From positions 39,025 to 103,024 of the forward strand of contig CAXHJY010000529.1 of assembly GCA_964016885.1 (NCBI GenBank): DNA of 64,000 bases, read 5' to 3'. Of this stretch, positions 4,061 through 63,840 are shown piece by piece. The notes under the pieces were generated by a model. That model saw only the letters and a list, made by a program, of their open reading frames with translations, was not told the DNA's origin and did no database searches. Position numbers and translations under genes: made by a program. The stretch is from Eledone cirrhosa. Lineage: Eukaryota. Numbering within the stretch: the first letter of the stretch is position 1; each line of letters begins with the position of its first letter.

Positions 4061-4119
4061 ATAATGGTATATCGTGCAATGGCCATACTCGATAACGAGG
4101 GACCAGCCATCATATATAT

Positions 4120-4975
4120 ATAGTGAAAAATTGAACGGGAACAAAACAGAGAGGCAATACGAACAAAGGTTTATTAATTTCACGCTCTTGAGAGTGGGGT
4201 GGTGGTGGGGAACGACGTTTCGGGCATAAGCCCTTCTTCAGGTGAAAAGTGTGTGGGAAGAGAGTTCAAAGGGTGTGTAGGGGAGTGGTGGAGAGACATA
4301 TAGCAAAAAGGGGGTGAGAGGAAACGGTGCAAATGAAATTAAAAATAAAGGCATGATCAAAATATAATTAAAATGAGGTAAAACAGGTGGTGGAAGGGTG
4401 TGGGGCGTGTAGGGGTGGTGGCGGGTGGAGTGGGGAGAGGGAGACGGGGTGTCCGAGCGGGGAGGGCTGAAGGTGGTGTGTGTGTGTAGGTGTACGTGTG
4501 TATGTGAAAGCAAGGGTTGGGGGAAGAACGGGGTTGCATGTTCAGAAGATGTGTGTGGGATGGGGTGTAGGTCGGAGTGTGCGCGCGTGTGTGGATAGAG
4601 GATTCCGGAGGCTGAATGTGTAAATGTGTGGTGGTACGCACGTGTGTGTGTGGTGTTTATGCGTGTTGTGTATGTTGGTGGCGTGTGGGAAAAATATTTT
4701 TGGGGGGTGTATGTTGGGGGGTGAGTCGTAAAGGTATTTCCGTAAAAAGATGTGGTGGAATGCTGAGTAAAATCCTTGGGATGCGGTAGATTCTCGGGAT
4801 CAAGGTTCACACATGTGTAATCCGTGAAGAGATTGGCCGGAAGATGGGAGATGTGGGGTGCGCGCGCAACAGGAAGTGGTCAGAGGGTCAAGGCAGGAGG
4901 AGGGTTGTGTGTCTGTGTGTGCGGGGAGGTGGTCAGAGAGGCATAGCAGCACTAGGGTAGAATGCTAAGTGAAGA
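4120..4975 (-). mobile_element. 5'-truncated Penelope-like element (PLE) end with a minimal hammerhead
   Basis: Bounded by (TA)n on both sides. Contains the HHR at 4214-4241 and the gcgtgaaattaata tail motif. Visibly homologous to 63420-63618. Confidence 0.65.
4214..4241 (-). ncRNA. Minimal type-I hammerhead ribozyme
   Basis: Minus strand reads CTGAAGA-A-GGGC-TTAT-GCCC-GAAAC-GTC: intact core, 4-bp helix II, palindromic ACGT helix III, GUC cleavage triplet. Confidence 0.8.
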
Positions 4976-5225
4976 AAGTATATATATATATATTGACGGG
5001 ACTAGCATAAGGTTTCCCTGCTAGTAGCGGTTGCATCTCAGCGCACTCAATATATATATATGTATGTGTGCGTGTATGTGTGTGTGTATGTATGTGTGTG
5101 TATGTGTATGTGTGTGTGTATGTGTGTAGATAGAGAGAGAGAAATACAATTACATACATGTGACATTCTATTTATTAATTACATAATAAAGAGAAACGTC
5201 ATTTACAGTGAATGGCGATCAAACC

Positions 5226-7963: not shown

Positions 7964-8960
7964 AGCCGACCCATGTACACTATGTGTAAAGGAAAAAAAT
8001 TCAGGAGGATCGTGGCTTGAATTTCCCGCTTAAATTTGAACCTTACAATGAACCGATGTTAAAATAATATAAGTTACAATGTAAACCTCAAGTAAGTGTT
8101 ATGTTTCTAAACAGAACGGAGTGAAACTACGAAGAAATGTTTAAATATTCGGCTGGATTACGTTACAGCGCCATCTGCCACTCTTCCTACGGATGTATTC
8201 AGTTAAAGGCGTCACATTTATTTAAACATTTGAAACAAGAAGCTGAAGAAGTCATTTAAAATTTTGTTTCTCGTGGATGTTTTTGAAAAGTTCAAGAAAC
8301 GATCTAATTAGTATCCATAGCACTTGCACAGCAGACAAATCAGCAAGTACTGAGACATCACGGCTGCATTGGAATTTCAAACACCATTCAAGGGTTTCAT
8401 AGAAAGGTAAATATCAACTAAGTCTTTTACATCTGTCGCCGACAAGGATACGAAAAACGATACTACAAACCAACTACCGCTGATCTCCAAGGGTTCTCTG
8501 ACACCACAACTAGATAGGAATTGGCAGCAACTATATATATATATCAAACTAAACAAATCAAGTTTGTGCTAGTACGCCGAAATTTCTCACTCAGTGGGAC
8601 GGGGGTGTATTTTTGTTAAGAGGTGCCTACTGACTGTAGGTTTCGCTTTGTACTTAGGCAAGGCGGGTCTTATATATACTAATAATAAATGTGAAGACTA
8701 AAATCCAAAGAGGGCTCGATAAGGATAAATATATATCAAATATATAAGAAACTTAGAGCAAATATTTATTAAAATAACAGATTAAAGTTTAAGCAAAGAA
8801 TCGCTGCTTTCACCCTTAACGGGAGTTTCAGACGATCCCGTTAAGGGTGAAAGCAGCGATTCTTTGCTTAAACTTTAATCTGTTATTTTAATATATATAT
8901 ATCTATATATATATATATATATATAACGTTGTGACAGATAACTCCATTAATTCGGGAATC

Positions 8961-21930: not shown

Positions 21931-22057
21931 ACAGAGGAAATATTTATTAGAATGCTGTTGAAATGTCTATACATATTTTGAGACACCCTGCACTTCCACC
22001 AAGCGTGAACCTAATATAACTGTACAATTGCCGTCTTTTGTTTGTTCATTTTTCAAC

Positions 22058-23003: not shown

Positions 23004-23194
23004 TAACAAAGGAATTGTGGTAAGGAACCAGATGGACCATAACGCACCAGAGTACTCAATACTTAAGGTAGTAGAGTGGGAAATAGGAAAAAGTATGACC
23101 CCGACGGCAGAGCTCAAGCCGTTTCGACGGCTATTTCTGGTCCAGAAATAGCCGTCGAAACGGCTTGAGCTCTGCCGTCGGGGTCATACTTTTT

Positions 23195-23199
<5 letters not shown>
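23004..23199 (-). mobile_element. Short (TA)n-embedded PLE-like element with a 58-bp fold-back
   Basis: Related copies at 10901-10976, 48383-48507 and 48590-48675 share the gagtactcaatacttagggtagtagagt block. All abut TA tracts. Confidence 0.55.
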
Positions 23200-23242
<43 letters not shown>

Positions 23243-23287
23243 TGAGATTCTACAGGACTAGAACTGTTTCATTCTTTAGAAATCAAC

Positions 23288-23321
23288 CTGATGATTTCTA
23301 AAGAATGAAACAGTTCTAGTC
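23288..23321 (+). ncRNA. Degenerate minimal hammerhead inside a fold-back palindrome
   Basis: CTGATGA-T-TTC-TAAA-GAA-T-GAAAC-AGTT-CTA. Helix III is imperfect. Confidence 0.5.
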
Positions 23322-23414
23322 CTGTAGAATCTCATCTATATTAAAACTTTTATACTCTGCTATGTATTGAGTACCTTACTTACTGTGGTTACCTCCGATT
23401 CAACCCGGAATAAC

Positions 23415-32516: not shown

Positions 32517-32772
32517 CGTTAGACTAACCTGATAACCACAACGGGCAGATCGGTGTAAGAGCGTTTCACCAGAGTTCTTATTTATTGCTAATCTGCGAAT
32601 TTCAAGTGGCATCGGAATACTGTTACTCGTCTGTAAGTAGAAGAAGAAAATAGATGAGAAAAGAAAGAAACATTATCATAATTCAAGATATTATATTAGA
32701 AAGATATTCATTATTTTTTTTTATTACATGTTCTGTTCTGTCACTAACCTCTCGCCTATATCTGTCTATTTT

Positions 32773-32801
32773 CTGATGAAAGGACTGGCGTCCGAAACGT
32801 T
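32773..32801 (+). ncRNA. Minimal type-I hammerhead ribozyme in a PLE end
   Basis: CTGATGA-AA-GGAC-TGGC-GTCC-GAAAC-GTT, followed by gcgtaaaaccaata and then a TA/CA tract. Confidence 0.75.
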
Positions 32802-32992
32802 AAGACCATCTACCTATTATATAAAGCGTAAAACCAATATATTTTTTCGTTGTACTGTGTCGTTTGCCTTTTGCATATGCATACATACATATATATATAT
32901 AAATATATATATGTAAGTCAAGGAAATACGAAACGAACGAACGAATAAGAAGATGCAATAATAAAGTGTATTAGTTTCACGCTTGGAGAAAG

Positions 32993-33044
<52 letters not shown>

Positions 33045-37025: not shown

Positions 37026-37314
37026 TAAGCATCATAGGGTAGATCAAATCGCTACTTTTCCTTGTTGATAATTGAGATGCAACATCTGAACGTTCAGCAA
37101 TCTGATCTGCTCTTCAAACACACACACACACACACACAGACACACACACACACATATACATATATATTGATTGCTGCACAATGCTGTCGACATATATCTA
37201 AGTGCGGTCTAGGGACAAAGAGACGGCGATAACACTCTCTCCCTCTCTGTATATATATATATATATATATATACAGAGAGGGAGAGGTGTGTCGGCAACA
37301 TCGTGCAGCTATAT

Positions 37315-37345
<31 letters not shown>

Positions 37346-37602
37346 GCTGCACGATGTTGCCGGCACATCTCTAAGTACGGTCTAGGGACGAGGAGAACGA
37401 CGATGACGATGCCGTTCTCAAATTTAAAACTTCACATAATGGGTAAATTTGAAATGAGTTGACGGAGTACATTGCACTCGTCAAAAGAAGGGGGTAAATA
37501 TTAAATTTGTGTTAGTAAAGTTAATGGGCAGCATTGGCTGTCGGAGTTGTTTGAACATGCTATAAATACCGATAGCAGCGAGCGGTGCAATGGCTTTCAA
37601 AC

Positions 37603-39851: not shown

Positions 39852-39993
39852 TATATATATATATATTTTTGTGTGTGTTGTGTGTTGTGTGTAAAAGGTA
39901 AACGGAAATAACAACACAATCGGTACAGTATATGGAAGGAATATATTAGTTTAACGCTTGAAATAGCAGGAAGAGGGTCCTAACGTTTCAGAC

Positions 39994-40047
39994 GCTAGGA
40001 TTCCACGCTCTCGCCGCGGTGGCCGGGTTCGTTTCCCCACTTAGGAA
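39994..40047 (+). pseudogene. 5'-truncated tRNA-Glu(CTC)-derived sequence (pseudogene or SINE head)
   Basis: gctaggatt-ccacg-CT-CTC-GC-cgcgg-tggccgggttcgtttcccc matches the D-arm end, anticodon arm and T-arm of metazoan tRNA-Glu. The acceptor 5' strand is missing. Confidence 0.65.
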
Positions 40048-41337: not shown

Positions 41338-42544
41338 GCTATATTACAACTTGTTTCTTATCTCTTCTTGCCGTTCATTATTAGGTTTTAGGATTAGTGT
41401 TATTATTATTCTTTATTTTTCTATTTTATTGCTACTCTATATTCCCCTACCGCCGCCTCCTCCCACCACCTCTGCCACCAACATTTCACTCATTTTTGTT
41501 ATGATTCTTTTTCTTTCTTGTTTTCTTTATATATTTTTTTCTGTTGGTTTATTTATTTTTCCTTCAGTGACCTCTTTCCTCGTCTGATGAACGAGCGATC
41601 AGGCCGAAAATTGCCTGGGAATGTCAAGGCTATGGAATAGTAGTGAGAAACAGGAGAGAGAGAGAGAGGTGAGGAGAGAGAGAGAGACTGAGGAGAGATG
41701 TGAGGCGAAAGAGAGAGATGGGAGGCATAAAGAGGTGATGGAAGAGAGATGAGGCGGGAAGAGAGGTGAGAGAGAGGTGAGAGAGAGGTGAGGTGGGGGA
41801 GGTTATATAGAGCAAAGAGAATATTTGTTTAAAGAGAAAAGAAAACAGGACGGGAGGAGATGGTAGTGGTGGGGGGAAAGAGACAAGTGAGTAAAGAATG
41901 AAATAGAGGAAAGGAGAGAGAGAGAGTGTGTGTGTGTGAATTAAAAAGAAGACCCGTTAGCAGATGGAATCGTTTAGTACCTACACAAATACACACACAC
42001 ACCCAGTAACACCCACATTCATTTGTATTTAAACTGTATCTATCAAGGCAACCCTTTTCCCCCCACAAAAACAACAAACAAAAAGCACAGTAATCCACCA
42101 CCATCACCACCTACCAACCATATCTCTCTCTCTCGTTTTTTCTCTTCTCTTTCAAATCCAACACGCTTTATATAAACATAGGACGGTAGTAGAAAAAAAT
42201 AAAGAAAAAAAAAACAAAAAAACTACGCCGACATCGTCACCTTCACAATCGTTATAGTTATAACCCGATGTTATTAATATCCGCTTATATTATAATGAAA
42301 AAGCCAAACAAAGACAGCCAAGTTTCTGTCGATCAGTAAAATAAAAAAAATAAAAAAAAAGACGTTATCGAATCTAGTTTGTATTTAGACGAGAGAGAGA
42401 AAGATAGGAAACCTCAGCGTAACCTAGGCTAGTAGGAAGATAAAGAGGAAAAAAACCGGCGACGTATTGAATGAAATTAGTTGTCCTTAACAAAGAGGTC
42501 ATCACCGCTGATGGAACAGACAGTAGGTTGGTTCTAGTTGTCCA

Positions 42545-47102: not shown

Positions 47103-47519
47103 GTATATAATAATGGTTTCTAATTTAGACACAAGGTCAGCAATTTTGGGGGAAGAAGAAAGTCGGCTTAAAGGTTCCCAGACGGTTACTTTATTTATCG
47201 ACCGCGGAAAGATGAAAGTCACAGTTGACCTCGGTTAGATTTGAACTCAGAAAGTAAAAGACCCGTAGAAATACAGTAAAGCACTTCGTTCTACGCCTCA
47301 ATAACCCCCCCCCCCCACCACCACCACCACCACCACACACACTTCACTATTATATAACAATGTGTCATACTCTACATATATAGATAAATCCTTGATGAAA
47401 GACTTAACGCCGGAAATATTTTTCCTGCTGTTTAAAGCGTTAAACTAATATATCTCAACATTGCACCATATTGTTCTCCTGTGAAGCTTTTCATCGTTGA
47501 CTTTTCGCAACACACACAT

Positions 47520-47572
<53 letters not shown>

Positions 47573-48354
47573 GCGTGCGCGAAAAGCACCAACCTTCGCT
47601 TTTTGTTTTCATTGTTCAGCACACGTGTGTGTGTGTGTGTGTAATTATCTAAATATTTTCTTTTCCCTGTTGAAACAGAATCTAAGTATACTCTTTAAGT
47701 AGGTGTAAAGCTAATATATATATAGATGAGTATTTAAACTTTATTTTATTCTGAGTTAAGGCTCTATTGATTTTTCCCTGGATTTCACAAAATTCTGTGG
47801 ATAAATGACTTAAATTTTTTTTAATTGAGTTTGAATTATTTCCCCACATCTTACGTTAACTATTTTTCCATTTTGACGTTATAGTCACTTATATATTATG
47901 GAATACTGTTGGCTTCACCCTCACAATAATTTCTATATTTTCATATATATAATATATATATATATAGGTTAACTTCACACCTTTTATATATAATCTGGCT
48001 GGAAACGTCCTTCCTTGTCGACTGTCCATAACTAATCTGACAGAGAGATTTGTGGGAGATGTATTTTCGAGATAAGAAGCCGACTAGAATGTTTACTTTG
48101 TTTATCAGCACGGCTCCACTCTTATCAGATGTATAAAGTGTTGAAAGGCCGAAAGCAGTTGAAACCAACTTGTCCTCTTCATCAATAAACAGTTCACATT
48201 AATAGTATTCTGTCTTGGCCTTGACACGGCTGGTTTCCTCATCACAACCGGGAGCCTGCCGACCCCAACTGTGGTGTGATGGGAAGCGCCCAGACAGGAA
48301 ACAACCTTTTCCGAGTAATCTGGGACGCTACATGTTGCGGACACGTTCTCTCTC

Positions 48355-48582: not shown

Positions 48583-50106
48583 ATATACATCAGATATGTT
48601 GTGGTAAAAATCTGTTAGACCATATCCCACCAGAGTACTCGATATTTGGGGTAGCAGAGTGGGTAATATGAAAAGATTCAGTCAGGACCCCTGAAAACAC
48701 TTCATATATATATATATATATATATATCATCATCATCACCGCTTTACGTCCGTTCTTCCATGCTAGCATGGGTTAGACGGGTTGTCCTGTTGTGGGCAAT
48801 GCTCATACGGGAACTGATTCTGGCTCGATTTCTACAGCTGGATGCCCTTTCTAACACCAACCTCATTTACAGTGAGTGCTGGGTGCTTTTTTGCCATGGC
48901 ACCTCCACGACCATTTTACAGTGGAATGATAGGAAACCGCAGTCCCTATCATCTCATTTCTACAGCTGAGTAAACTGGAGCAACATGAAATAAAGTGTCT
49001 TGCTCAAGGAAACAACACATCAGCCGGTCTGAGAATTGAACTCACAACCTTTCGATTGCAAGGCCAATGCTCTAACCAATAAGCCATGTGCCTCCACCTA
49101 TATTAAACTAAACTAAGAAAAGTTTGTTCACTTTTAAAAATTGTCCTGTGACATTCTGTGAATTTTCTATGAAAACTAACAGAAATATATTCTATATTAG
49201 CCTATTTCAGTTCCACCTACAACCCTGCCCTGTCGTGACCCCGTAGTTTCCCTGGTGTCAAAAGAATCCTATCATCTATCGTTCTTACTAAGACTTTTTA
49301 ATCTTTGCTAAGATTACTAAAGCAAAGAGACTTAGGCCGTGCGTGTGTGTGTGTGTGTGTGTGTCTACGTGCGTGTGTGTGAGTGTATGTGTCTGTCTGT
49401 AGCGTTCTTGTCCATGATTAATTACCGAACAGTCCTGTCGTATCAAGCAACTCATACTTAACTACTCAATATATATACATGTAGGTAAATAAAGGGATTT
49501 GTATCTCTAGGGGACTCATGCCATTATGAAAAGAAAAAAAAAATTCACAATAACGTTTAATGTATCTAAGGACTTTTAACACCTGATTGAGTTGGAGGGA
49601 CCGCTAAAGTGACATACAGTTTCTTGGGTACTTTAAAACCTTGAAGAGGCAATCGCAGAGATAGAGATAGAGAGAAAGCGAGAATGAGATGAAGATTCGA
49701 CCCCAGCGCGTGACTGGTACTTTATTTTATCGACCTCGAAATAATGGTTTCTCATATAGGCACAAGGTCAACAATTTTGGGGGAGGGGGAAGTCGATTAA
49801 ATCGACCCCAGCGCGTGACTGGTACTTTATTTTATCGACCTCGAAATGATTAAAGTTAAAGTTGACCTCAGCGGGATTTGAACTCAGAGAGCAAAGAGCT
49901 GAAACTAATACTGCAAGTCATTCCATCTGATGTTCTAACCACTCTCACAATATACGTTGTTTTCTAGAATATGTAAATAAAATACGTCATATATCATCAT
50001 CATCATCATCATCATCAACGTTTAACGTCCGTGTTCCATGCTTGCATGGGTTTGGACAGGGGTAGTCCCACTTGAGGCAAGAGTGATTGTCTTGCTCGCA
50101 TAGGAC

Positions 50107-50141
<35 letters not shown>

Positions 50142-50217
50142 CGTATTTTATTTACATATTCTAGAAAATATAGTGACGAAGCATAAGTCAATTGCATGAA
50201 CTCATAATCCTTTATTT

Positions 50218-50272
50218 ACTGCTTTATATTTCGATGATAGCCATTGAGTGGCTATGACCTCATCAGGCAGTT
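50218..50272 (-). ncRNA. Hammerhead ribozyme in a PLE-like end
   Basis: Minus strand: ACTGC-CTGATGA-GGTC-ATAGCCA-CTCAA-TGGCTAT-CATC-GAAAT-ATA-AA-GCAGT, then AATAAA. Perfect 7-bp hairpin in helix II. Helix I is offset by 2 nt. Confidence 0.65.
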
Positions 50273-50366: not shown

Positions 50367-50480
50367 TAGAAAGGAAAAATATTTTTTCAGTGAAATTTCA
50401 AAGCATTAATTTATTTACAATATGTAAATAAATTAATGCTTTGAAATTTCACTAAAAAAACCTCTTCCTTTCTACTATTT

Positions 50481-55908: not shown

Positions 55909-56294
55909 CATCATCATTCATCATTTCACGTCCACTTTTCCCTGCTTGCAAGGGTGGGACGGGAACTGATTCTGGCTTGATTTCTACAGCTGGATGCCCT
56001 TCCTAACACCAACCTCATTTACAGTGAGCGCTGGGTGCTTTTTTGCCGTGGCACCTCCACGACCACTTTGCAGTGGAATGATAGGGACCCCAGTCCCTAT
56101 CATCTCATTTCTACAGCTGAGTAAACTGGAGCAATGTGAAATAAAGTGTCTTGCTCAAGGAAACAACACATCACCCGGTCTGAGAATTGAACTCACAACC
56201 TTTCGATTGCAAGGCCAATGCTCTAACCACTAAGCCATGTGTGTGTGTGTATAAAAACATCTGACTGATAAAATGACAAGTCAGTCAATCACAT

Positions 56295-56475: not shown

Positions 56476-57541
56476 GAAGAGATGTGGCTAACTGCTGTGA
56501 AATATCTGAGCTAATGTTTTAACCATTTAGCTATTTTCCACTATACGAAAAGCTGCTTTCATTTAGCGTAACACTGTTTTTAATAGAGCCAACGGCGCTA
56601 GATTGCCTTTAGGGTAATAACTTCACAGTAGAATATAAAATAGATGAGTCATCTAGTAATAAAGTTGTGTGATATAATAACGAATTGATAAAAAAAAAAA
56701 AAAGAAATCTCTTGAAGTTTTTCTGTTAATGTAATTTTCATTCTACTCTCTGCAGACGGTGAAATAAAAAGAAGAAAAAAAAGAAAAACTAAAAATGTCT
56801 ATAATTAATATAAGTTATGGTAATTTTAAACACTTGAGGCCAGCAAATAAATAATGTTATGTTCCATAATTTACAGAAATGCTTTTTCAGAGTTTTCTGT
56901 CTTTTTCTTGGCAACATGTAAAATCGCCAACAATTAACAGAATGTTTAAAAGTGTTTTGGGAAAATGATATCATCTGCATACCGTGGAAAATGTTTGATA
57001 CATGTGTAATAATTATATATTAGCTATGTACTTTGTAAAATATGTGAGACATCAATGTTTGATACAGGAGAGAAAAAAGAAAGAACAATACCCAGTGGGA
57101 AATGGAGGTTAGGAATGAATAAACCATGTTTTGAATTTTGATAGAAAGATAGAAAGGAGATATTTTGGTGGAAGTAGATAAACCATTAGGAAAAGGCTTG
57201 CTTACTACGTGACTTTATCTTACTTCAGTCGTGAAAACAACCTTAATTGACAGAAGGCATTACACTACTAGCGAAGTAATAATAGTAGTCGTAGGCTGAT
57301 CTACAAAAACGTGCTTCACTTGATTAACAAAAAAACAACTGAAATCTTATCCTAGATAAAGTGGCTTTGACGTAATATTTTGATTAGTTCTCTGTAACGC
57401 CAAGAAGCTGATTAGAACGAAACTAAGTCTGAAATAAAAATAAGCACATGTTACTAGAACGAACAGCTGATAACATTTCAGACAGCAAATAATTAAAAGA
57501 AAAGAAACGAAAATAAAAAAAAAACAGTTTTTAGAATTTAC

Positions 57542-60500
57542 CTCTACATGTTTTCTTTTATTCAAAGTATTTGTGGTATCCCAGGGAAATTTCTCCTTCT
57601 GACAAGGTATTTCCGTAAAACTTCCTGAGTGTTCAGCAGAAATATGAACGGCAGATGATGATATGCGAGAATGATGCTGTGGTTTATGGGAATTTATAAA
57701 TTGGTCATCGGTTTCGTTCCACCGGTAATAGGAATTGGCTGCTGTATGAGACGAAACCTCATTGACAGAAGCCAACAGTTCCTGTTTGAAATGGTTGTGT
57801 ACATCTCGTTCATTCGGAACGCCGTTTTGTTGTAGTTGTTGTTGTTGTAGTTGATGAAAGTTGGAATAATCAGATGCAGCGATAACATCGTAATTACTAT
57901 TTAGTTTTCCAATCGACTGTTCCTTTAGGGTTTTCTTAAAATCCGATGTTGCGGGTTCATCGGGTCTGGATATCGTTTCAGTACCAGTAATAACAATGTC
58001 GTCATCATCATCATCGTCAACGTTGACCTTCTGGAAAGGATTTTCAATTATTTCAACATCGCTAGATTTAGATGAAGACATACACGAGGAAATTTTATCC
58101 GAACTATCCGTGTCTACGTGTAATTCCTGGCAATGTTTCTCAAGCAATGTGTTTATAGCATCTTTCAACGACATTTTACCTTTCGGTGTGTCAGCATCAC
58201 AGCACATCTGTACTGTAGATTCTAGAATATTGTCACTGTCAGAGTTTTGAATCATTGATATGATATTTTTGGTAGAGAAAAATGTGCGTGGCATTGGAGG
58301 ACTGACTTTATCACTGGCGTCTCTGCCTTTGTTGGCACATTTCGTAGAGTCCGTCGTATTAGATCGTCGACTATTATTATCGGTAGATACAGAAATTATT
58401 TTAGGTTCCTCTGAAGGGCTTGTATTGTTGCTGTTGTTACTATTCAAGTTATTTTTGTTGTTATTGTTGTTGTTATTGTTATTCATGATAATACTACTAT
58501 TGATATTACTGTTATTATTATTATTACTAATGTTGTTGTTGTTGTTATTAGTATTACCATTATTAGTCCGGTGATTCACATGAATGTTATGGTTAACGTT
58601 AACACTATTGTGAAGAAGGCTGTTTGAGTTCATTGCAGATTTGTGGTGTTGTTTTACTTGAACTATTGGTGCCACATTAGCAACGGGAATGTTTTTGTTG
58701 CGTATTGTACTACGCCCAGTGAAACCATCACGTTTATCTCTCATACTGTCCATGACAGTTTTGGGATGTCTAATGCCATCCTGGAGTCTATTTGTCTGGA
58801 GAGGAGAGTTCTCTGTTGGCAAACTAATCGGCATATATGGAAGATGTAGGTTTGGATTATTGAAAGCTGACGGATATGACATTGGGTGACCGTACATCGA
58901 ATGGGGAACTTCATGATGTGGAGGAAAATGAGGGCGAAACATAGATTCATGTAGATATGGAATTGAAGGTTTTAGATTTTGAGGTATACCGTTTGTTGAA
59001 TTCCGTTTCATTTCTAGAGATGGCCTCATTATTATTTCAGCATTGTCTTGGATAAATGCATCTGGGCTTGAATTGTCTACAAAAGTTGCTGAACTAGGTT
59101 CCAGCGGAGGAGGTTCACTTGTGGATGGTGAATCAACTCGAGGTGGATTTTTGTGTTGTGGACTTAGTATTGGCATTTTAGGCGACGGCGTGGGACTAAT
59201 ACTGATAAGAGAAGATTCTGATATGCTTTCTTCGTGCGGGTTTAGGGTAACAATTCCGTTCTCCACGTGGAACACCTTTTTCAGCGCTTCATCTTGATTG
59301 ACAGCATTCATTATAATATGCTTCCTAGAACCAAGTTTTGGATCTTTGCTCTCAGAGGCAGATTTAGTTATTATAACATCTGCTTTCTTGTTACTGGCTG
59401 AAGATTGTGAGGCTTCTGAAGATATATCACTTGGGATGTTTATTGACAATGGAGTACTATATGGTGGAATAGAATCAGCAGCATTCGATGAGTTCTGGTA
59501 CTCCTTGGAATTAGCACCACTACTACTACTATTGTTCCCATAGACAACCTTCAGTGAATTTCTCTCAGATGCCGAACTATTCGACTCTGAAATCACGTTG
59601 ATAATTGGAACATCTTTAGGCTGTCTGCTACTACTGGTTGTGGGGCTGATGATTCTTACATCATCGTTAGAATCAACAGATTTCCCTGAATCCATTGCTG
59701 AATGATGCAATGAAGATTTCATATTTAGGTGATTATTGGTTGTCATGGTAGTCGAGGTACTGGCGCTGCTGTTGTTGTTGTTACTGCCGTTGTATGCGAC
59801 ATCAACACCAGAAGCAGCAGAGTAATGCGACTGACCTCCTCCAAAAGACTGTTTTTGATGTTTTTGCACACCGTGCTGAAGCGAGGATTTTGAAATGTTG
59901 AGGACGGATGTAAGCGAAGTTGAATTGACATCAGTTGTGGTTGTAGACGAAGACAATGATGGTGATGAAAAGGATAAGGGAACGGGTGGTGCAAAGGGAG
60001 ACTGGTTAGACATATACATTAACCTTTGTTGTTGCTGTTGTTGTTGTTGATGGTATGAGGGATATGCTTTATTTAGTTGTGATTCCATCATCAGAGCTTG
60101 CTTACTTGGTGACAAGGAAGTCAAAGCTCCACTACCGTTTGCATTATGTCTTTTAGCATTTTCTGAAACATGTTTCTGTGAAGACATTGACTGGTTCACA
60201 GAAGCTGGTACATACATCTTCTGTTGTTGATGTTGGTAGGAAGATATAGATGCAAGAGAGCTAAGCTTGTTTGAAGAACTTTTACCAGCCTGCATCAATT
60301 GAATATTGGCTTTTTCTTGGTTTGACATATGCATTTGGGCAGCCATTGGCGTCAACTGTTGTTGGTGACGCTGGAGAAGACGAGCTGTTGACTGTGGATG
60401 TAGATCTGTAGAGTTACGTTTAGTTATAGAACAGTTAGTGCTGTCAGGGCTGTAGCGAAGAGATGTCAAGTCAGCCCCTATACCATTTGAATGGGATTTA

Positions 60501-60702
60501 CCAGTTGGAGAACAATTTTCAAACTTTTTAGGCTCCATTTGATGGAAGGGAAATACTTTCGCTGACATACTGTTGATGTTGCCAACGTCGGTGTGACTAG
60601 CTGCCCTTCCTGGCAATATATTTGAGATACGTGCAGAGGAAGTTGTAGAGGGTGAGGAAAGAGATGATGTTGATGTTATTGTCACTGTCGTTGGCGAAGA
60701 CA

Positions 60703-60738
<36 letters not shown>

Positions 60739-61121
60739 TATGAAGAGGAGATGCTTGGTGGCGATGAGATGCATAATGTTGTTGATAACGTTGTTGTTGT
60801 TGTTGATGATGTGTGATCTGTTGTTGTTGTTGTTGCAGCCGCTGTTGTTGTGACTGCTGTTGATGGTGTTGAGAAAGTTCTTGATCTCTCAAGCGATGAT
60901 GGTGTAGTGAAGGTGGTAACTGACGTTGAGAGGATGTCAATGTTTGCGATGACTGAGTAGGTCCTGGCAGGTAAGGGCTTGATGTTTGTTGTGAGAATAG
61001 TTGGCACCTTTGGTTGGTTACCTGCATCTGTCGTGAAGTTTGATGTGAGGTTTGGTGCGGTTGATAATGTTGTTGTGATTGTTGTTGCTGTTGCCTCTGC
61101 TGATTGTATTGATATTGCTGC

Positions 61122-61164
<43 letters not shown>

Positions 61165-62080
61165 GCTGCTGCTGCTGCTGGTGATGTTGGGATGAATGAG
61201 AACGTGCTGCTGCTAACGTTAGACAGTGCTGTGAATCGTAAGTTGGTGACGTTGTGTGCCCTGAAGTTGCTTGAAGATTTCGCTGAGATTTTAGTGAATC
61301 AGCTGGGAAATCCCGCACAGTCGGAGACATTTGTAAACCAGAACGAGCATCAGGGTGACCCAAAGGAGATTTACTAGAGAGAGAGGGCGGCGATGAAACG
61401 CTGCTAGTTGTTGGTACAAATATTGGAGGATAGCCAATGTAACTTGCGCCTAATTTTAATCGATTAACCGCTTGATTATTAGCCAATCGATTATTATTGA
61501 CAGTATCTGACATGGATTTTATGGGGCTAGGAACTTCTTTACACTTGGACGGCTTGTTAGATTTTGGTTTAGGTGATACTGTCTTCAGTGCCGCAGTTTT
61601 GTACACGTAAGAGTTCTGCACAAGAAATGGTGGGGCCATCATACTTCCATGCATTTGTTTGAAAGGAGAGTTCTTGGTTTTAGTTAAATCCAGAGGACTA
61701 GGAGGGGCAATTTGGGGGTGAACTTTGGGTCTCTTCATTGGTGACAATCCACTGAGGAACGGATCGAATATTGTAGTGTCGGGACTACGCTTACGTGTTT
61801 TAACGGACAGGTCAAGAGGACTGTCAGCGTTGCGTAGAGCATGAACAGAGGGGAATGGAGAGACCTTCTGGATCTGTTGCTGTAACTGTTCCGTGTCCGA
61901 GCGAAAGTCTTTCTTAGGAGGAAGCCGTATCTGACTGGCATGTTGTTTAGCCATAGTGTCACCGTTTATCTGAGGGGGCTGTTGACAATCAACTTCAGAC
62001 GGTAGTCCACCTTTTGATGGTTGTCTAACAGGCATATTAAACACCCTTTCTTTGTAGCTGCAACTCATGTTTGGAGTTAC
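57542..62080 (-). CDS. Giant internal coding exon (4539 nt, 1513 codons) of a large low-complexity nuclear protein, putative transcriptional co-regulator
   Basis: Lies within the 1583-aa ORF 57347-62098. Minus-strand acceptor ...ttttttctttgcag|GTA (exon starts 62080) and donor GAG|gtaaat (ends 57542), both phase 0. Contains PLDLS and PLDLT motifs, basic clusters (KTRKR, KRPK), PxLxP motifs (PILSP, PPLEP) and polyQ/polyS/polyN tracts. Confidence 0.92.
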
Positions 62081-62159
62081 CTGCAAAGAAAAAAACAAAC
62101 AAACAGATCAGATACAGAATAAATAAATAAAACAAGCACGTACGTACAATTCGTTACTG

Positions 62160-63421: not shown

Positions 63422-63618
63422 CTTTTTAATTTTTTCCTTCCCCTCAAATTCCCTCCCCCCTTTTAATGGCTTTCCACAACTCCCCCTCACACCCTCGGAA
63501 CTCTTCTCCTGATGAAGGGCTTATGCCCGAAACGCCGTCCCCCACCCCCTACTCTCAAGCGTGAACCTAATACTAACACTTTGCACTGCACTCTTCGTTA
63601 TTGTTTTTTGTTTTAACC
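63420..63618 (+). mobile_element. PLE 3' end, same family as 4120-4975
   Basis: Shared actcccc..cacaccct..gaactct upstream block, HHR and ctctcaagcgtgaacctaata motif. Ends in (TA)n. Confidence 0.65.
63509..63536 (+). ncRNA. Minimal hammerhead with a mutated cleavage triplet (GCC)
   Basis: CTGATGA-A-GGGC-TTAT-GCCC-GAAAC-GCC. Same helix II as the copy at 4214-4241. Confidence 0.7.
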
Positions 63619-63689
63619 TATATATATATATATTTTAATATCTGTTATATATATATAACAGATCTAGCTGTCGAAGCGGCCGGAGCTCA

Positions 63690-63758
<69 letters not shown>

Positions 63759-63840
63759 GCCCCGACCGCTTCGACAGCTAGATCTGTTATATATATATAA
63801 CAGATCTAGCTGTGAGAAAAGTTGCTCCGAACGAACTGTC

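Follow-up and report, generated by a model that had tools for sequence, protein, structure and literature searches.

A conserved 14-nt box in a family of probably PLE-derived repeats inserted in microsatellites of Eledone cirrhosa

Seven repeats found in 64,000 nt of microsatellite-dense animal DNA from Eledone cirrhosa (the whole stretch analysed, hereafter the window) form one family, and each of them carries an exact copy of a 14-nt box, GCGTNAANNNAATA. Taken as a whole, our reading is that of 5'-truncated, probably Neptune-type ends of a Penelope-like element (PLE) lying in TA/CA microsatellites, with the box serving as an RNA motif bound by the RT-endonuclease, and we give it about an even chance of being right in all its parts. 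Published work already covers the targeting of microsatellites by PLEs, their 5' truncation, their tails and their hammerhead-bearing ends; what may be new is one undescribed sequence motif within this known element class. A description of the box was not found in the literature and supplements searched, and Repbase or Dfam, which lay outside that search, may already show it.

The longest copy occupies about 840 nt of the reverse strand (4123..4965, the 5' limit being approximate) between TA runs at 4111-4122 and 4979-4993. It combines a G-poor body (9% G upstream of the ribozyme) with a hammerhead core, the box at 4172..4185(-) and a T-rich tail of 49 nt (4123..4171, -) that ends in (TA)n. 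A copy of about 195 nt at 63425..63618(+) (hammerhead 63509-63539, box 63559-63572, tail; E 1.9e-12) also lies between two TA runs and is of the same subfamily type (73% over 128 nt). Hammerhead sequence, box and tail were likewise seen at 32767..32875(+) (hammerhead 32773-32801, box 32826-32839; leave-one-out E 1.2e-15), at 39891..39999(-) (3' half of a hammerhead, box 39944-39957, tail ending in CA and then TA; E 2.4e-11) and at 47387..47510(+) (decayed hammerhead 47392-47420, box 47437-47450, tail running to CA/TG repeats; E 1.8e-8). Two short copies consist of box and tail, one at 21990..22057(+) (box 22003-22016, ending in TA and then (TG)n; leave-one-out E 1.7e-5) and one at 32913..32996(-) (box 32969-32982, TA repeats on both sides; leave-one-out E 8e-6). 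When each copy was sought with a profile of the other six, all were recovered at E values from 1.7e-5 to 1.2e-15, and the best non-member reached 0.36-0.87. With the full family profile no eighth, box-less member was detected in the window; thus, as far as this window goes, the box is not an artefact of sampling box-bearing copies from a larger box-less family. A short second (inverted) arm was seen at none of the seven copies.

Some features of the surroundings deserve mention in their own right. Between 32826 and 32996 two members of different subfamilies stand tail-to-tail; the TA-rich tract that they share is short, and a host exon lies some 140-370 nt away. The two short copies seem to start only 13-14 nt upstream of the box (21990-22002 and 32983-32996), which may be a preferred truncation point. 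At 39995-40045 an element that we take to be a tRNA-like SINE head abuts the 39944 copy and seems to cut its ribozyme. The host exons belong to a gene on the reverse strand (29750-62107). One exon is very long and of low complexity, and ankyrin repeats lie at the C-terminus, a layout that may recall BCOR-type corepressors. Over residues 14-260, the long open reading frame of this gene (57350-62107, -) shares 90% identity with an Octopus sinensis ankyrin-repeat protein, a counterpart named only as a putative mediator subunit, and the exons were placed at 62068-58565, 52675-52598, 51285-50716, 32630-32529 and 29995-29750. According to this exon map four of the seven copies (32826, 32969, 39944 and 47437) are intronic, two on each strand. 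The window also contains long fold-back palindromes (8726-8925, 23083-23199, 23236-23341, 37281-37374, 50382-50460 and 63639-63806), some of which adjoin or surround TA runs; these gave rise to false miRNA matches in the Rfam search.

All seven box sites listed in the initial annotation were recovered with their positions and strands. In 100 dinucleotide shuffles of the 64-kb window the box occurred 0.08 times on average and twice at most, against seven exact matches in the window itself. If the A preceding the box is included, the seven copies agree completely in 11 of 15 columns, compared with 1 of 43 among the remaining columns; this figure is descriptive, as the motif was defined on the same seven copies, but five of these carry ribozyme sequence as well. 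The data support the view that the box is under constraint while its flanks drift. All four bases occur at its fifth position in one copy or another, so that GAAA is not kept, and the idea that the box is a second hammerhead half was rejected. A one-mismatch box at 47703-47716(+), with TA repeats directly after it and GAAAC 26 nt upstream, was not picked up by the family profile and could be a decayed short arm.

A distance of about 15-30 nt downstream of the hammerhead had been proposed; the box starts 25-31 nt past GAAAC in four copies and about 19 nt past it in the decayed one. GAAACG was present 15-45 nt upstream of four of the seven boxes and of only 0.7% of random positions, in agreement with the proposed co-occurrence of box and hammerhead above chance. 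On the other side, the initial annotation had the copies ending about 40-60 nt later in (TA)n or (CA/TG)n, and indeed the element has a fixed 3' end: in all seven copies the first dinucleotide run with at least three units begins 45-59 nt past the box. Among 20000 random positions, 11.3% had a run 30-65 nt away, which places seven out of seven at 2e-7, so the claimed enrichment of dinucleotide repeats in the 3' flanks holds; under a looser null that accepts any distance up to 65 nt (34.8% of random positions) the value is 6e-4. None of the outcomes that had been named as speaking against the initial interpretation (chance co-occurrence, unenriched flanks, linkage to a non-PLE element) turned up.

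The ribozyme of the longest copy (4214..4241, -) is a minimal type I hammerhead core with a GTC triplet, helix II GGGC/GCCC and an extra A after A9. Intact cores of the form CTGAnGA...CGAAAC are present at 4217-4241(-), 32773-32798(+) and 63509-63533(+), a decayed core at 47392-47416(+) and a truncated 3' half at about 39982-39999(-), the inventory that had been reported. The broader notion of a hammerhead at the family ends thus stands for five copies, where it is intact, decayed or partial; none is recognisable in the 22003 and 32969 copies. Helix II reads GGGC/GCCC in two copies and GGAC/GTCC in the 32773 copy, i.e. one compensatory pair, and the two GGGC/GCCC copies, being identical, count as one observation. 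It therefore does vary and yet stay paired in the three intact cores, as had been noticed. After A9 one unpaired A is found in two copies and two in the 32773 copy. A local helix I can be formed only in the latter (4 bp, -3.9 kcal/mol) and is absent in the 4241 and 63509 copies; this subfamily has kept core and helix II, with pyrimidines on both sides at the place of helix I. Since two intact copies lack helix I, self-cleavage would not be expected from these sequences as written, and the copies in the window are probably inert. In Rfam searches a hammerhead match was absent for two copies tested alone and among the 150 of 228 whole-window matches listed.

Other hammerhead-like sequences were seen in the window. 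A different hammerhead at 50215-50270(-) has a 5-bp helix I (ACTGC/GCAGT), a long helix II and no box; it belongs to an island some 200 nt long with a TA run at either side. At 41584-41610(+) a near-match to the hammerhead core follows a long pyrimidine-rich stretch, also without a box.

To follow the family beyond the window, four public runs (X1, X10, X5 and X7) were matched to positions 4105-4975 at 80% likeness. This gave 4497 of 16.3 million X1 contigs, 3311 of 12.5 million X10 reads, 49 X5 contigs and 16 X7 contigs, part of the matches being confined to the low-complexity CA-rich middle. Summed depth in X1 fell about 100-fold, from 283000 at 4165-4194 to 900-2900 at 4705-4824; in X10, where depth is uneven because the library is a reduced-representation one, it fell more than 30-fold, from about 1430 at 4195-4224 to below 45 at 4705-4944. 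Loose ends at 4112 enter TA/CA-type repeats (60 contigs and 194 reads; 24 of 443 loose-end entries were listed), and related contigs and reads span 4112-4951. Thus, the family has many copies that have lost 5' sequence; depth gradient and loose ends together reveal 5' truncation with a fixed 3' end for one subfamily. The repeat ends of all seven copies and the loose ends also bear out the microsatellite targeting that had been suggested, an insertion bias that is not exclusive to Neptune. Among the 40 of 125 variants listed, changes fell at free position 7 of the core (4237) and at the free position 4177 of the box, and none in helix II or at fixed box positions; for the 5' portion of the 4172 copy, variants within the family come from the top entries listed. 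X5 and X7 bear other organism labels, and one X7 contig, which has TA at its end, runs through the ribozyme, the box and the tail.

We consider it very probable that the seven repeats are 5'-truncated PLE ends. Minimal hammerheads of PLEs are marked by an extra nucleotide after A9, a G10.1-C11.1 pair and a palindromic ACGT at helix III, and mostly occur as single, truncated copies (Cervera and De la Pena 2014, PMC4209133, as far as its available text goes). The ribozyme described here carries these marks, which belong to hammerheads in the pseudo-LTRs of metazoan PLEs (PMC4209133), and the minimal type I form with an extra nucleotide after A9 was found in all three intact cores. It differs in its shorter helix II (4 bp, against 7-8 in Schistosoma), in the missing helix I of the 4241/63509 subfamily, unlike the published PLE minimal hammerheads, and in the downstream box, none being described for those hammerheads in the available part of PMC4209133. 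The initial annotation had left the choice between a PLE and a retrozyme lineage. PLE-type ends are borne out by ribozyme marks and repeat targets, whereas the retrozyme alternative is not supported here, as no copy stands in a tandem array. Animal non-LTR retrozymes, thought to use PLE enzymes, are non-coding and have a type I hammerhead like the present copies (PMC7229834; bioRxiv 10.64898/2026.07.22.740005, both available in part). They are, however, built of tandem units each with a hammerhead (PMC7229834), and at the seven sites of the window the copies are single, never tandem, and do not show this retrozyme trait.

PLE membership falls short of proof because no RT or GIY-YIG gene is linked to the copies. 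Pfam returned neither domain in 280 of the 298 stop-free segments of the window (at least 45 residues; a search without positive control), the 18 omitted segments being those inside the long exon. An RT and a GIY-YIG in one open reading frame were not found at the window copies, which reach about 840 nt at most. Protein searches (P0001) yielded no PLE protein, only nothing or chance matches to zinc fingers, and an RT-motif scan of viral contigs gave 0 matches. Two coding candidates were rejected: an endonuclease relic at 4760-4975(-), Neptune-like by eye over two frames, ranked outside the top 8 when its motifs, in order, were sought throughout the window and in 20 shuffles, and its fragments led to nothing relevant as search queries, and a coding-like stretch upstream of 32773 is the host exon 32529-32630 on the other strand.

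With respect to the clade, we favour Neptune as the likeliest, at somewhat better than even confidence. Hydra-1_Obim and Naiad_Obim/Ovul of Octopus share host group and (TA)n targets with the repeats analysed here (PMC8557442, available in part). Hydra hammerheads, however, have a helix III of 3-4 bp and a full helix I, neither of which applies to the present cores, and that of Hydra-1_Obim differs from them in sequence; Naiads are described there as lacking canonical hammerheads. This leaves Neptune, Poseidon or Nematis. Neptune-clade PLEs have hammerheads, and a microsatellite insertion bias has been attributed to them (Craig et al. 2021, PMC8557442), which would tip the balance towards Neptune; the likeness consists of hammerhead and microsatellite bias, and the clade itself is defined by RT phylogeny and a CX2-5CxxC linker zinc finger. 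Five spellings of the box were absent from the available supplement of PMC8557442 in a string search, in which line breaks can hide matches.

What the box might do is suggested by a studied PLE. In PAc, a Poseidon element of Anolis carolinensis, reverse transcription begins at two internal RNA sites with the tail between them, and a protein-binding motif, as yet unmapped, has been hypothesised to lie within the initial 172 nt of its ORF (Frangieh et al. 2024, PMC11167929, available in part). The hammerhead cuts PAc at +26 and the main RT start is at +111-118, i.e. 85-92 nt further on; from cut site to insertion end we measured 74, 79 and 91 nt in the three intact copies, so the distance from hammerhead to end is fixed in both (PMC11167929). 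The box lies between ribozyme and end, in the counterpart of PAc's presumed protein-binding segment. AT-rich targets are common to both as well, and hammerhead cleavage is dispensable in PAc, which fits the loss of helix I observed here. The two differ at the RT start, which in PAc is an AC-rich stem-loop inside the ORF start and here a non-coding, U-rich stretch with no supported structure (PMC11167929).

From this comparison we tentatively propose, at slightly less than even confidence, a protein-binding role of the box. The RT-endonuclease would bind the box in read-through RNA as single-stranded sequence, and the bound protein would nick a dinucleotide (TA/CA) repeat. The cDNA would then start where the U-rich tail ends, some 45-59 nt past the box, and copying would usually stop early, most copies measuring 80-200 nt. 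With such early stops, hammerhead, box and tail would be the part that survives.

Several other explanations can be weighed against binding by the RT-endonuclease. One, which we regard as unlikely, accepts PLE ends and takes the box for a 3'-end processing signal, made up of a poly(A) hexamer in variant form and a GU/U-rich element downstream of it. AATAAA, AATATA and AATACA are variants of the poly(A) signal, and the hexamer starting with AATA reads AATAAA in one of the seven copies, AATATA in four, AATACA in one and AATACT in one; moreover, the tails are 48% T with an excess of GT (29 vs 20). Nevertheless, a processing signal leaves the invariant AGCGT unexplained, the two bases after AATA vary, a poly(A) tract is missing from all seven copies, and the element extends 45-59 nt past the hexamer. 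In a look-alike locus from outside the window (L014, see below) the hexamer is AATAAC.

The box could also act as DNA at the ends of a PLE, either as a promoter element of the pseudo-LTR or as a site by which the endonuclease recognises its own sequence, a view we find distinctly unlikely. Transcription start lies in the pseudo-LTRs of PLEs (PMC8557442, available in part), recognition by the D. virilis endonuclease depends on the DNA of the tail (cited in the available part of PMC11167929), and conservation of the box as sequence rather than structure would suit a DNA site. The fixed distance from box to end, however, is explained more simply by positioning of the RT.

It is improbable, in our judgement, that the repeats are a non-coding, non-autonomous family of the retrozyme or SINE type, dependent on the machinery of PLEs or of other elements. 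In its favour, none of the coding relics considered passed a test, the 4241 ribozyme is preceded by 720 nt of low complexity with little G, and such PLE derivatives have been published (bioRxiv 10.64898/2026.07.22.740005, available in part). Against this stand the missing tandem units at all seven copies and a depth that declines in the 5' direction as it does with a long template. A non-autonomous family would not conflict with a box that serves as the protein's grip.

CTAAT-like motifs serve as branch points, and together box and tail might be read as splice signals, branch point plus pyrimidine tract, of an intron at the junction of pseudo-LTR and body, which seems quite improbable. Junction introns are known in Penelope and Chlamys-3 (PMC8557442, available in part), and the tails have a single AG where 6.7 are expected (P 0.002). 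Yet AG is depleted upstream of the 4241 ribozyme too (7 vs 15, P 0.005), the tails also lack GG, the tail of L014 does contain AG, and AGCGT would again have no explanation.

A pairing role for the box within the RNA, either with helix I as the initial annotation had suggested or with the tail, is hardly credible and is contradicted on eight sequences: the 6-bp complement to helix I exists only in the 4241 copy (-5.0 kcal/mol, against -1.3, -0.1, +1.1 and -2.4 in the other four tested copies), and roughly half of the X10 reads have a T-to-C change at 4246 that breaks it. Box-tail hairpins are predicted in most copies and look good in single folds, but the native energy sum of -46.5 was no better than that with shuffled tails (-53.0; 91% as good or better) or with swapped box-tail pairs (-48.4; 73% as good or better), and the hairpin was rejected. 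What is conserved in the box is thus its sequence and not a helix.

Pattern scans for hammerhead plus box outside the window returned 26 metagenome loci, 4 + 4 viral loci and 9 loci in prokaryote genomes. Helix II had 0-1 bp in 42 of these 43, which were taken as chance matches, and 4 bp only in the metagenome locus L014; a core-only scan gave four loci, of which the three listed are all without a box. L014 has two inverted arms, each with a hammerhead and a box 31 nt after GAAAC, that end 14 nt and about 54 nt past the box between AGACAT repeats, and the third position of its helix II contributes two further pairs, C-G and T-G. The two-armed layout matches the published PLE footprint of an inverted truncated copy plus a one-sided tail of 30-40 bp (PMC8557442, available in part). 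Scores against the window family profile are marginal (E 0.084 and 0.57); with these weak scores, and as one of 26 metagenome matches chosen by a pattern that includes the box, L014 may be a chance match. We treat it as a lead that falls short of proving a motif shared across phyla. The source looks like an animal, with sparse microsatellites (0.2 per kb against 5.3) and repeats that give us the impression, as an assumption, of cnidarian origin. In addition, a repeat at L014:3814-3993, 74% alike over about 100 nt to 48991-49081 and 56132-56232 of the window, is probably a widespread SINE. A far-reaching extension, which we hold to be rather unlikely, is that an entire PLE clade, with hosts ranging from cnidarian-like animals to cephalopods, uses the box as its cis-acting RNA address, read by the RT-endonuclease in single-stranded form and setting two internal starts about 14 and 50 nt downstream.

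PLE proteins are the closest relatives of telomerase RT, and the box may bear on how they choose their RNA and internal start sites. A single in vitro study narrowed binding of a PLE protein to about 150 nt, with no motif named in its available part (PMC11167929). Being short, invariant and at a fixed distance from the insertion end, the box is a direct candidate for mutation, and it could tag highly divergent PLE ends as one lineage. If the clade-wide address were true, no template-recognition motif of a PLE would have been mapped before it, and PLE copying could be grafted onto foreign RNA.
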